In this document: piece by piece, positions 15,001 to 18,000 of the stretch
How the letters are laid out: every line of letters starts with the position of its first letter
Numbering within the stretch: position 1 is the stretch's first letter
Source: a virus
Lineage: Duplodnaviria; Heunggongvirae; Uroviricota; Caudoviricetes
Length of the DNA stretch: 51,529 nt
Virus record (IMG/VR): IMGVR_UViG_2617270963_000008
Direction: 5' to 3' (one strand)
Made by a program: the position numbers

Positions 15001-18000
15001 TGACCACTTCATGACGGCCTCGGCTAAGTATTGCGATATCCTGTTGCCCGACCTGATGCCAACAGAGCAAGAAGACCTTATCTCTCATGAATCTGCAGGG
15101 AATATGGGCTATGTGATCCTCGCCCAACCCGCAACCTCAGCAAAATTTGAACGCAAACCCATCTACTGGATGCTGAGTGAAGTCGCCAAACGCTTAGGAC
15201 CAGACGTTTATCAAACCTTTACTGAAGGTCGCAGTCAGCATGAATGGATCAAATATCTCCATGCGAAAACGAAGGAACGTAACCCTGAGATGCCCGACTA
15301 CGAGGAGATGAAAACGACCGGGATCTTTAAGAAAAAATGCCCGGAAGAACACTACGTCGCTTTCCGCGCATTCCGTGAAGATCCACAGGCAAACCCGTTG
15401 AAAACACCTTCGGGGAAAATCGAAATTTATTCTGAACGACTGGCGAAGATTGCAGATACCTGGGAATTGAAAAAAGATGAAATTATTCATCCCCTTCCTG
15501 CGTATACCCCAGGTTTTGATGGCTGGGACGATCCCCTGCGGAAAACCTATCCACTGCAGTTAACGGGCTTCCATTACAAAGCGCGTACCCACTCCAGCTA
15601 CGGCAATATTGATGTGTTACAGCAGGCCTGCCCACAAGAGGTGTGGATCAACCCCATTGATGCTCAGGCACGCGGTATCCGTCATGGCGATACCGTGCGG
15701 GTATTTAACAATAATGGAGAAATGCTGATTGCCGCAAAAGTGACTCCGCGTATTCTGCCTGGCGTTACCGCCATCGGGCAAGGTGCGTGGCTTAAAGCGG
15801 ATATGTTTGGTGACCGGGTCGATCACGGCGGCAGTATCAATATTCTGACCTCTCACCGCCCTTCACCGCTGGCAAAGGGAAACCCGTCGCACAGCAATCT
15901 TGTCCAGATCGAAAAGGTTTAAGGAGTAGCCCATGACCACACAATATGGATTTTTTATCGATTCCAGCCGCTGTACTGGCTGTAAAACCTGCGAACTGGC
16001 GTGCAAAGATTTTAAAGTTGGTTACGTATCGTTTAAAATCAATTAGATAGCCCGTCATTTCTGCGCTCACACGTCCCAACATTGAAAAACATGCAAAGCT
16101 TTGTAAGCCGGTGCAAAGCTTTGTGTGTCTCACTTTTGTCCCAATACCAATCCGAATCCACCCTTTGTCATCATTGAGAAATGGCAAGGAAGAAAAGGAA
16201 GAAAAGGAAGAAAAGGATGTTACTGCACGATTTGACAAATCCGCCAGAGCTATCGCATACTGACCGCACTACAACGTCAGCGGTCAACCGCACCCGATAG
16301 CTTTGCGGCTTTTTTATGCCTGTTTACAGGTATCGCCATATCAATGGCGGGTCGAGAGAGCCTAATACAATACCCTTTCGGGAAATACGCTCCGCCGTCT
16401 GACGCGGTAGTTGAAGCCCGCCCCCCCACTAAGGTGGCAGTCAATACTAAAACGTCAGGAGTCATAATTATGACTAATCAACTCATTCCCGTTTTCGATG
16501 GAACCATCAACAACGAACCAGTTTTACTTTGCAATGCTCGCAATCTGCACGCTTTTCTTGGTATTGGTAAAATGTTTGCTCACTGGATCAAGGACAGGCT
16601 GGGTGAATATGGATTCGTTGAAAATCAAGATTTTGTGATTGCTTGCCAAAATTGGCAAGCAAAAGGTAGAGGCGGTCACAACCGCAAGGAATACCACCTC
16701 ACCCTCGACACAGCCAAAGAGCTTGCGATGGTTGAACGTAACGAAAAAGGTCGCCAGATCCGCCGTTACTTCATCGAGTGCGAAAAGAAACTTCGCAACA
16801 TTCAGCCAGTACAAGCAGAACCACAGCCGCAATTCACAGCCGAGGAAATCATCCTCCTTTGCTACATGCAGCTCTGGATGGAAAAAGCCCAGGACATCAG
16901 CAAACACCTGTATCCCATTATGAAAGAGCTGAACTCCTCATACACGAACAAGCTGTATGACATTGCGTTTGAGACCATCTACATGGTGACGAAGAACAGA
17001 GACGCGCTACTAAGGGAGGTAACACATCTCGACATGTCAAGTTCCGTTATCCAGCGGGCCATGCCAATGCTGAAAAGTCTGCGGGCAAGACAATTTGAAT
17101 TCTGAAACCAAAGGAGCTTCGGCTCCTTTTTTCATGCCTGAAGGAAAGGAAAATGGCAGATATCATCGACAATGCCGCTGAAATCGAAGAATTGCAGCGC
17201 AATCTCTCCCTGCAAAAATACAAATCCGATAGTAATGCCCCATCTGCTACTCATTGTTGCGAGTGTGGCGATCCGATAGATGAGCGGCGACGCCTGGCTG
17301 TTCGTGGATGCCGAGCTTGCGCCAGTTGCCAGCAGGATATTGAACTTATCAACAAACAGAGAGGTGTGAAGTGAACATCAACACCACGATAACGATCGAT
17401 ACAGCCCTGAACACCGGCCTGGCGCTCCTTGGTTATTTCTACATCATGTTCTGCAGCGGACGATGGCTGTCACTGTTGTTCATGAAAAAATGGAATAAAC
17501 GCCGTAAGCAGGAGCAACGCCAGAAGGCAATGGATGCATTTTTCGAAGCCTTCGGGATTGACAGCATGGAACCAGGGGATCCAGCTCGCGCAATCAGCAG
17601 AGGGGGCGTAGTAATCCTTGTATATCGGAGTGAAGAGAAAAATGACGATCACAAAACAACGTGTAGAAAAAATCATATATCGCCATGAAATGGGACTGAA
17701 CAGCGATGTCACTGCCGAAGAGGTTTATGACCTGGCTGTACTGGCGCTGAATTTATCAAATATCGCAAACCTGAAGCGATACGAGCTTGATATGGATGGT
17801 TGCGACTCGTGCGGTCAGGATTGTGGCGCAGATATGACTGAAGATCCTGATGGTGATTATGTCCTGTTTGATGACGTGGTTAAGTTGTTTGAGCTTGATA
17901 CATTCGAAAGCCCAGCAAAGGAGGCAACCAGTGAGCAAGATTGATTATCAAAAGCTTCGTGAAATCGCTGAAAAAACAAAAATTGCTGGTGAAGCACCTG

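Follow-up and report, generated by a model that had tools for sequence, protein, structure and literature searches.

A 933W-like prophage at a 7-bp core within ynfG, adjacent to a Qin-like prophage in ydfJ

In the stretch of DNA analysed here, hereafter the window (51,529 nucleotides; IMG/VR virus record IMGVR_UViG_2617270963_000008), the host gene ynfG breaks off shortly after its start and is followed by phage DNA. This raises the question of whether the break is the attachment site of a prophage or the scar of another event and, in the former case, of which phage is involved and what has become of its other end. The features needed to describe the junction were as follows.

13496-15922, + strand: ynfF, intact host gene upstream of the junction (808-aa ORF; synteny with TOE17, O104 and K-12)
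15933-16017, + strand: ynfG 5' remnant, 28 codons plus 1 nt (translation, alignment with K-12 attB, genome matches)
15933-16046, + strand: fusion ORF composed of YnfG residues 1-28, 9 phage-encoded residues and a stop (translation)
16011-16017, + strand: common core (overlap region) of the attachment site, TTTAAAG, 7 bp (three-way alignment)

The ynfF gene was annotated at the syntenic position in K-12, TOE17 and O104:H4 (the last two being the closest relatives) and was 99.98% identical to that of K-12. The alignment with K-12 proposed for defining the core was performed: identity, at 99.98% from ynfE/ynfF onwards, ended exactly at 16017. The first 85 nt of ynfG (15933-16017) were 100% identical, and thousands of genomes whose ynfG is uninterrupted matched the window up to exactly the same base (query base 85), with phage DNA beyond it in the window. 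Translation from 15933 gave MTTQYGFFIDSSRCTGCKTCELACKDFK, corresponding to YnfG residues 1-28, followed by VGYVSFKIN and a stop codon at 16044-16046. This remnant contains the first CxxCxxCxxxC ferredoxin motif, and the same 84 nt are labelled by PGAP as a partial 4Fe-4S binding protein in TOE17 and O104.

The only stretch common to the window junction, the int-side junction of O104:H4 and K-12 attB was TTTAAAG, at ynfG codons 27-29, which is flanked in attB by an imperfect inverted repeat (CAAAGAT / ATCTTGG). Host identity ended exactly at this core, as is characteristic of a site-specific tyrosine-integrase attachment junction, and Rfam and tRNA scans at the junction gave no match. An initial, sequence-only reading of this DNA had described a prophage interrupting ynfG after 26 intact codons. 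The interruption itself was confirmed, with a defined 7-bp core, located to the base by the present analysis, and a breakpoint at 16017; the figure of 26 codons fits the unambiguous host DNA (15933-16010), whereas identity reaches 28 codons plus 1 nt, because the last 7 nt are the core common to phage and host. By the lambda convention, the junction in the window is int-distal and of the attR type. We are highly confident that 16011-16017 is the core of the int-distal junction of a 933W-like prophage, inserted in ynfG by tyrosine-integrase site-specific recombination.

The occupancy of the site was determined in 5426 complete E. coli genomes. The attB site was uninterrupted in 5236 of them, and exactly 82 contained two separated attB halves. 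The same junction and phage arm as in the window were present in 82 complete genomes belonging to several lineages, and the junction is thus not a chance feature. The resulting estimate of ynfG occupancy (82/5426, or 1.5%, all with the same arm) is new to this analysis.

The initial reading also named ynfG as a reported integration site of lambdoid and Stx-type phages, and for Stx phages the literature agrees. Phage phiPOC-J13 is found in S. flexneri S1742/ynfG, and its integration into ynfG of MG1655 was shown experimentally (PMC4193171); S. sonnei phage 75/02 (PMC5447701), an O113:H4 Stx1a prophage (PMC10562709) and another stx1a prophage (bioRxiv 10.1101/2024.05.07.593058) were also reported in this gene. 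In the literature searched, no mapping was found that would identify ynfG with 'Z2577 (oxidoreductase)', a classical Stx integration site. A non-specific deletion, an illegitimate-recombination scar or an assembly chimera could be suspected, since a single junction is visible within the window and the window ends in a repeated IS sequence, typical of assembly breakpoints. Such an origin is extremely improbable, given that 82 independent complete genomes, drawn from several lineages, carry this junction and arm in identical form, that the breakpoint matches to the base a 7-bp core also found at the int-side junction, and that the site was verified experimentally for a phage whose integrase gene is 99.5% identical at the nucleotide level.

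The other end of the prophage, where a missing ynfG 3' part would point to a deletion or rearrangement, lies beyond the window in the present strain, as does the integrase, in line with the initial reading. It was seen in TOE17 (junction region 99.8-100% identical to that of the window) and in O104:H4, where it consists of a tyrosine integrase, the 3' part of ynfG and ynfH, which in these relatives speaks against a deletion or rearrangement scar; exactly 82 genomes contain the two attB halves apart from each other. The O104:H4 integrase (387 aa; Pfam Phage_integrase, 1.5e-45; motifs LRRSN / HDLRH / RRYAHL) is directly followed by TTTAAAG, ynfG from codon 29 onward, and ynfH. TOE17 has the same layout and an identical Int protein, and the int genes of both were 99.5-99.9% identical at the nucleotide level to those of POCJ13, 75/02 Stx, phiSTEC1589-Stx1c and PhiR5_2.

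We considered whether ynfG is reconstituted by the phage, the 3' remnant being annotated by PGAP as an intact 184-aa CDS. This was rejected because the first cysteine cluster is absent and the phage adds no more than GTG-Ser-Asn-Asn. The absence of the first Fe-S cysteine motif from the 3' remnant probably leaves the YnfEFGH selenate/DMSO-type reductase inactive.

Downstream of the core, the phage DNA begins with an attachment arm and a hairpin.

16018-16231, + strand: int-distal att arm of the phage, particular to the int/att module that targets ynfG (cross-phage conservation)
16092-16104 and 16112-16124: two palindromic TGCAAAGCTTTGT repeats in the att arm
16186-16217: 9-bp tandem repeat in the att arm
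16241-16317, + strand: long hairpin followed by a U-run, terminator-like (folding)

The arm was nearly invariant in TOE17, O104, POCJ13 and PhiR5_2, while in other 933W-like Stx phages with different integrases the match began only at 16232. This places the boundary of an exchangeable int/att cassette at approximately 16231, a further addition of the present analysis. The arm is enriched in TGCAAAG, and the repeats containing this motif are putative binding sites of recombination proteins. A basic search for terminators picked up the palindromic repeat pair at 16089-16128 and nothing else, since the loop of the long hairpin exceeds the size that it allows; the hairpin was therefore examined by folding. 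The hairpin had a minimum free energy of -34 kcal/mol (z -4.18), and none of 200 shuffled sequences folded as well. In five phages, its stems were invariant and its apical loop variable; this is conservation without real covariation, as one marginal compensatory pair was observed among sequences too similar to be informative. A sigma-70-like TTGACA-18-CATACT at 16232-16261 overlaps the 5' arm of the hairpin. In the circular phage the hairpin would come after int-attP, in a place resembling that of lambda sib/tI, and it may serve as a terminator.

Beyond the hairpin, the prophage genes were identified as follows.

16470-17105, + strand: phage antirepressor Ant, with AntA and P22AR C-terminal domains (Pfam)
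17153-20217, + strand: accessory early genes of the lambda b-region / ea type (Pfam; TOE17 and O104 annotation), the first of which is TraR/DksA-like
17371-17688, + strand: DUF4752
17850-18419, + strand: Ead/Ea22
18612-19271, + strand: ORF of no assigned family
19453-20217, + strand: DUF551
20619-51082, - strand: late/structural region of a 933W-like (Sepvirinae) podovirus prophage, including Lom, tail fibres, capsid and Rz
20619-28970, - strand: 2783-aa LPD38 protein
44617-46761, - strand: portal
47061-49263, - strand: terminase
about 49866-50447, + strand: LPS heptose(II)-phosphate phosphatase moron

The likely start of ant is at 16470, preceded by AGGAG, the longest ORF running from 16344. 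Its product matched AntA (9.8e-26) and P22_AR_C (2.3e-6), and the O104 homologue is a 636-nt phage antirepressor Ant. The late region was 99.1-99.7% identical to that of the O104:H4 ynfG prophage, and 85% of 16018-51082 could be aligned collinearly with POCJ13 at 88-94% identity. With this collinear late-gene module, the prophage is a 933W-like (Sepvirinae) lambdoid podovirus.

According to the model we propose, the circular phage would have the order xis, int, attP core (TTTAAAG), an arm of ~215 bp, the terminator-like hairpin, then ant and the accessory early genes, which would converge on the end of the late operon. In the excised phage, the joined attP arms would read …GAGCAACAAC-TTTAAAG-TTGGTTACG…. 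The 7 bp at ynfG codons 27-29 are the same as the phage core, and recombination between the two would split the gene: its first 28 codons would remain behind ynfEF, fused to 9 phage codons, as is seen in the window, and the other 177 codons would be moved, together with ynfH-dmsD, about 60 kb away, beside int. Because no free-phage record with the exact attP contiguous was found (the POCJ13, 75/02, phiSTEC1589 and PhiR5_2 records have both their start and their end at or near att, with about 25 nt around the core missing from that of PhiR5_2), support for its contiguity comes from the analogy with the Stx1-converting phage AP005153 and from the lysogenisation experiment.

In the lysogen, ant lies directly downstream of the anaerobically induced ynfEF, with the conserved hairpin and U-run alone between them. 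The hairpin, acting like lambda tI/sib in the phage, may insulate ant from ynfEF read-through. A regulatory rather than neutral choice of site, in which ynfEF transcription leaks into ant and couples prophage induction to anaerobic respiration signals, seems to us very unlikely; it would require the hairpin to be a conditional terminator, sib/tI-like for transcripts coming from upstream and bypassed by those starting at the promoter-like TTGACA-18-CATACT.

We then return to the prophage as a possible carrier of Shiga toxin. No stx gene was found in the window, and the toxin-cargo (Q-S) region lies outside it, both as initially read; nor was stx found in the homologous prophages of TOE17 and O104, the POCJ13 control being positive. 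The prophage could be Shiga-toxin-converting if the right-hand IS were closely followed by stx, placed between Q and the holin gene as in POCJ13, 75/02 and phiSTEC1589-Stx1c. Its int/att and virion modules are the same as those of Stx1 phages at ynfG, and stx1a or stx1c is frequent among the ynfG prophages in the literature. However, stx is absent from this prophage in the nearest relatives, TOE17 (99.8-100%) and O104:H4 (99.1-99.7%), and the stx1-carrying POCJ13 is only 88-94% identical; the window itself is free of stx, the Q-S interval lying past the IS at 51083. We therefore consider a toxin-converting prophage unlikely.

On the other side of ynfEF, the window contains a second prophage.

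513-5685, + strand: int-proximal end of a Qin-like prophage, including the dicB/ydfD region
846-897: DicF RNA (Rfam, 76.7 bits)
1505-4012: 835-aa exonuclease (Pfam)
4085-4336: excisionase, xis (Pfam)
4356-5651: integrase, 431 aa (Pfam)
5686-5781, - strand: ydfJ 5' remnant of ~96 nt next to rspB (homology to the intact ydfJ of O104:H4 starts here)

Its site in ydfJ by rspB, the presence of dicF/dicB and the int-xis-exonuclease end identify it as Qin-like, and the TOE17 annotation includes the Qin genes ydfU, rem, hokD, relBE, flxA, dicB and ydfD. The initial reading of a second, Qin-like prophage about 10 kb away, with the rspBA-ynfA-F block lying between the two, was accurate: the border-to-border distance was 10.3 kb, with the Qin-like prophage in ydfJ and the 933W-like prophage in ynfG.

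Both ends of the window consist of IS sequences.

1-512, - strand: inverted copy of the IS element below, inside the Qin-like prophage (ALIL pseudoknot at 61-177, - strand)
51083-51529, + strand: IS3-family IS1203/IS629-like element interrupting the lysis region and cut by the window end (HTH_Tnp_1 orfA, ALIL frameshift pseudoknot)

The right-hand element had been named IS629; it is indeed IS629-like, but the PGAP label is IS1203 family. The two copies are inverted and share 447 bp at 100% identity; the match to TOE17 and O104 breaks off at 51082. The genes R, S and Q, any stx, the replication and immunity genes, int and the ynfG 3' part would fall beyond the IS at 51083, outside the window.

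This arrangement suggests that, at a true att junction, the prophage may here be a rearranged remnant, with neither the int end nor the 3' part of ynfG still at the expected place: recombination between the inverted IS copies (1-512 and 51083 to the end) would flip a 50.5-kb segment, or an IS-mediated deletion would remove the early half. The whole window is bracketed by identical inverted IS copies, neither IS junction was found in any complete genome, and TOE17 already has a 31-kb internal deletion in the late region, indicating a decaying prophage lineage. On the other hand, the canonical end (int, ynfG 3' part, ynfH) is kept in TOE17 and O104:H4, both attB halves are apparently kept in all 82 genomes with the junction, and synteny with O104 is unbroken inside the window from 20175 to 51082. 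A rearranged remnant thus appears improbable, and the present strain probably retains the int-side end beyond the IS.

The ynfG integration site was already known, and the finding is correct but ordinary; the core, the occupancy estimate and the cassette boundary leave current understanding unchanged. Its main value is the correct annotation of a Qin-like prophage in ydfJ and a neighbouring 933W-like prophage in ynfG. The latter uses the integrase/att module of Stx1 phages from Shigella and non-O157 STEC. An occupied ynfG would block incoming Stx1 phages of the same type, or offer them homology, and its occupancy is relevant to typing and to the prediction of Stx-phage acquisition.

Among known systems, the nearest by sequence are the stx-negative ynfG prophages of O104:H4 (2011C-3493, C227-11 and others) and TOE17, whose junction, core and arm are identical to those of the window. 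Both lack the IS insertions of the window; O104:H4, unlike the window, has no Qin-like prophage in ydfJ, and TOE17 has lost the region corresponding to 17950-48892, which the window retains. The Shigella phages POCJ13 (phiPOC-J13; Sepvirinae, Diegovirus) and 75/02 Stx, both Stx1a phages, have int genes 99.5-99.6% identical at the nucleotide level to those of O104/TOE17, the same int-distal arm right up to the core, the same gene order and virion module, including a protein of ~2790 aa, and the same target gene, ynfG. They differ in the accessory genes that follow DUF4752, up to where the late operon ends; moreover, the window arm has two additional copies of the 9-bp repeat, the lysis region of the window prophage is interrupted by an IS, and stx was not seen in the window or its closest relatives.

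With 933W and AP005153 (Sepvirinae, Traversvirus), the ant-TraR-DUF4752-Ea22 module is common from 16232 onward, at about 84% nucleotide identity. AP005153 shows the same int-att-arm-ant topology, contiguous in a circular record with an annotated 7-bp attachment site. In contrast, the integrase, the att core and arm, and the chromosomal target all differ; because these phages combine another integrase, att and target with the same ant module, the int/att unit behaves as an exchangeable cassette. Finally, the system resembles lambda Int/att in that a tyrosine integrase sits beside attP, the overlap core measures 7 bp, the path of the int transcript leads past attP into accessory genes, and a hairpin with a U-run follows on the same strand, some 225-300 nt from the core. 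The identity of the arm sites and any sib-like function are putative here, and the integrase lineage and core are different from those of lambda, as is the target, which lies within a protein-coding gene and is not restored by the insertion.

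Starting in ynfD/ynfE, the window is 99.98% identical to E. coli K-12 MG1655 across ynfF and the first part of ynfG, the last identical base being exactly at 16017. A 299-nt query placed across the junction gave the same limit: only its bases 1-85 (to window position 16017) matched in thousands of genomes with an intact ynfG. The interruption of ynfG by a prophage, as proposed in the sequence-only reading, is therefore real and precise to the base. The ORF starting at 15933 encodes MTTQYGFFIDSSRCTGCKTCELACKDFK, corresponding to YnfG residues 1-28, followed by VGYVSFKIN and a stop codon (16044-16046).

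We aligned three sequences: K-12 attB (the empty site in ynfG), the window junction, and the int-side junction of the homologous prophage of O104:H4 2011C-3493. The window followed ynfG as far as …GATTTTAAAG, the O104:H4 int-side junction followed it from TTTAAAGATCTT… onward, and only TTTAAAG (window 16011-16017, ynfG codons 27-29) was common to all three. Lambda-family tyrosine integrases typically have an overlap of 7 bp. The earlier count of 26 intact codons covers the sequence that is host DNA beyond doubt; the 7 nt after it form the shared core, and identity continues to 16017. In attB, an imperfect inverted repeat, CAAAGAT / ATCTTGG, lies on either side of the core.

The O104:H4 prophage spans about 60 kb and ends in a 387-aa integrase, whose stop codon is followed by 52 nt, the core, ynfG from codon 29 onward, ynfH, and dmsD. 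In TOE17, the closest relative found (99.8% identity over window 987-17949 and 100% over 48893-51082), the identical integrase protein (WP_001387389.1) adjoins the same 555-nt ynfG remnant and ynfH. A far end devoid of the 3' part of ynfG, which had been named as evidence against integration, was thus not encountered in these two relatives; the window stops short of its own far end. Among 5426 complete genomes, attB was intact in 5236, was present as two separated halves in exactly 82, and the window junction plus the adjoining phage arm was likewise present in exactly 82. Based on these equal counts, rather than on a genome-by-genome match, every split ynfG in the collection appears to be of this insertion type, with both halves kept. 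This occupancy (about 1.5% of complete genomes) is a useful by-product, together with the base-precise core and the cassette boundary described below.

The insertion presumably inactivates YnfEFGH, the 5' fragment of ynfG encoding no more than 37 aa. For the 3' remnant, the PGAP annotation gives an intact CDS of 184 aa, a "DMSO/selenate family reductase complex B subunit" (15204-15758 in the O104:H4 locus L003; 9667-10221 in the TOE17 locus L008). This CDS takes its start, GTG-Ser-Asn-Asn, from phage DNA and is missing the first CxxCxxCxxxC Fe-S motif; its annotation as a functional protein is probably an artefact.

The integrase shared by O104:H4 and TOE17 matched Pfam Phage_integrase (1.5e-45) and carries the motifs LRRSN, HDLRHTWASW, and RRYAHL, a tyrosine-recombinase signature. 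Its DNA is 99.5-99.9% identical to int of the phages POCJ13 (phiPOC-J13), 75/02 Stx, phiSTEC1589-Stx1c, and PhiR5_2. The phage would enter ynfG through Int-mediated recombination of the attP core with the attB core, a mechanism that is experimentally grounded for this int/att module because phiPOC-J13, with its near-identical int, lysogenises MG1655 at this gene: Gray et al. (2014; PMC4193171) located phiPOC-J13 in S. flexneri S1742 by junction PCR and also demonstrated it in ynfG of new E. coli MG1655 lysogens. Upstream of int, PGAP annotates a xis-like HTH gene as an incomplete pseudogene in both O104:H4 (L003 17091-17186) and TOE17 (L008 11554-11649); in this DNA, an ORF starting MDSHSITLKEACKFLKISRPTAVNWIRTGRLQ… runs on into the int start.

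The phage arm next to the core (about 214 bp, 16018-16231) was nearly invariant in TOE17, O104:H4, POCJ13, and PhiR5_2, while sequence from 16232 onward also occurred, at about 84% identity, in 933W-like Stx phages bearing other integrases; the int/att unit is thus an exchangeable cassette with a boundary at about 16231/16232. The heptamer TGCAAAG, with a background rate of 0.17 per kb over the window, was found at -68, +81, and +101 of the reconstructed attP, as well as in the attB left half-site. The two arm copies form palindromic TGCAAAGCTTTGT units, 20 bp apart, and are candidate protein-binding sites. The otherwise invariant arm also contains a small VNTR, a 9-bp tandem repeat (AAGGAAGAA, 16186-16217) with 3.6 copies in the window and TOE17; 18 bp (two units) are missing in O104:H4, POCJ13, and PhiR5_2.

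A long hairpin followed by a U-run (16241-16317; -34 kcal/mol, z -4.18) lies about 225-300 nt beyond the core, on the strand of int transcripts reading past att, a position corresponding to that of lambda tI/sib. Across five phages, its stems were invariant and its apical loop variable, and no usable covariation was found in this comparison. In a lysogen, this terminator-like structure would also be expected to halt ynfEF read-through ahead of ant. A sigma-70-like TTGACA-18-CATACT (16232-16261, + strand; 10/12 matches), kept in the five phages, overlaps the hairpin 5' arm; more speculatively, transcripts from it would lack that arm and could enter ant.

The flanks of the window contain the following features:

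513-5685: int-proximal end of a Qin-like prophage (DicF RNA, exonuclease, xis, int; Qin gene set in the TOE17 annotation)
about 96 nt, abutting the Qin-like prophage, beside rspB: ydfJ 5' remnant
1-512 (- strand) and 51083-51529 (+ strand): IS3-family, IS1203/IS629-like element in two inverted copies, with 100% identity over the 447 bp that can be compared

The second, Qin-like prophage reported about 10 kb away is borne out by DicF, xis, and int at ydfJ, with a 10.3-kb host block (5686-16017) between the two prophages. In O104:H4, by contrast, ydfJ is intact at this position. The DicF antisense sRNA gene (846-897, + strand; Rfam, 76.7 bits) lies 334 bp from the left IS copy. One IS copy is located in the Qin-like prophage and the other within the ynfG prophage, in its lysis region, with the same IS end inward at both. 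Because the copies are identical and inverted, and no complete E. coli genome was found to share either IS junction, inversion or deletion between them could have occurred in this strain. The 50.5-kb segment may be invertible, or the window may be a repeat-bounded contig.

The ynfG prophage has the following gene content in the window:

after the arm, + strand: Ant antirepressor, TraR/DksA-like, DUF4752, Ead/Ea22, DUF551 (domain annotation)
full late region, - strand: 2783-aa LPD38 protein, Lom, tail fibres, capsid, portal, terminase, Rz (99.1-99.7% identical to the O104:H4 prophage)

The LPD38/LPD5 domain-containing ORF (20619-28970, - strand), the last large gene of the late operon, is kept in O104:H4, POCJ13 (8382 nt), and PhiR5_2. 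Between the Rz and terminase genes, on the opposite strand (49866-50447, +), the late region holds a moron-like cargo gene whose O104:H4 annotation reads "lipopolysaccharide core heptose(II)-phosphate phosphatase". TOE17 lacks window 17950-48892 (31 kb, the entire late/structural region; gap at 23475-23478 of its locus L001), and its ynfG prophage is therefore a deletion remnant, whereas the window keeps the virion genes. TOE17 also exhibits a duplication of about 475 bp within ant.

In agreement with the earlier reading, no stx gene was found in the window by tblastn (every match E ≥ 0.6); the Q-holin interval lies past the IS at 51083, outside the window. Nor was stx found in the TOE17 and O104:H4 ynfG prophages (POCJ13 positive control, 100%), the stx-negative elements that the window element most resembles.

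From the two prophage ends, we infer the circular order xis - int - core - arm - ant…, converging on the late-operon end. The circular Stx1 phage AP005153 has the same int-att topology contiguously, with an annotated 7-bp attachment site, although its integrase is different; lambda is arranged likewise, its b-region genes following att on the pL/int transcript path. Over 85% of its length, the prophage part is collinear with Shigella phage POCJ13 (Sepvirinae, Diegovirus), with an identity of 88-94%. In line with the earlier reading, ynfG (also named dmsB or S1742) is a published, experimentally verified Stx1-phage integration site (PMC4193171, PMC5447701, PMC10562709, bioRxiv 10.1101/2024.05.07.593058), and the adjacent ynfH is named as an integration site in a review. 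The observation and its interpretation are thus both supported, and the window element is another member of the group of ynfG-integrating phages, already known in kind.
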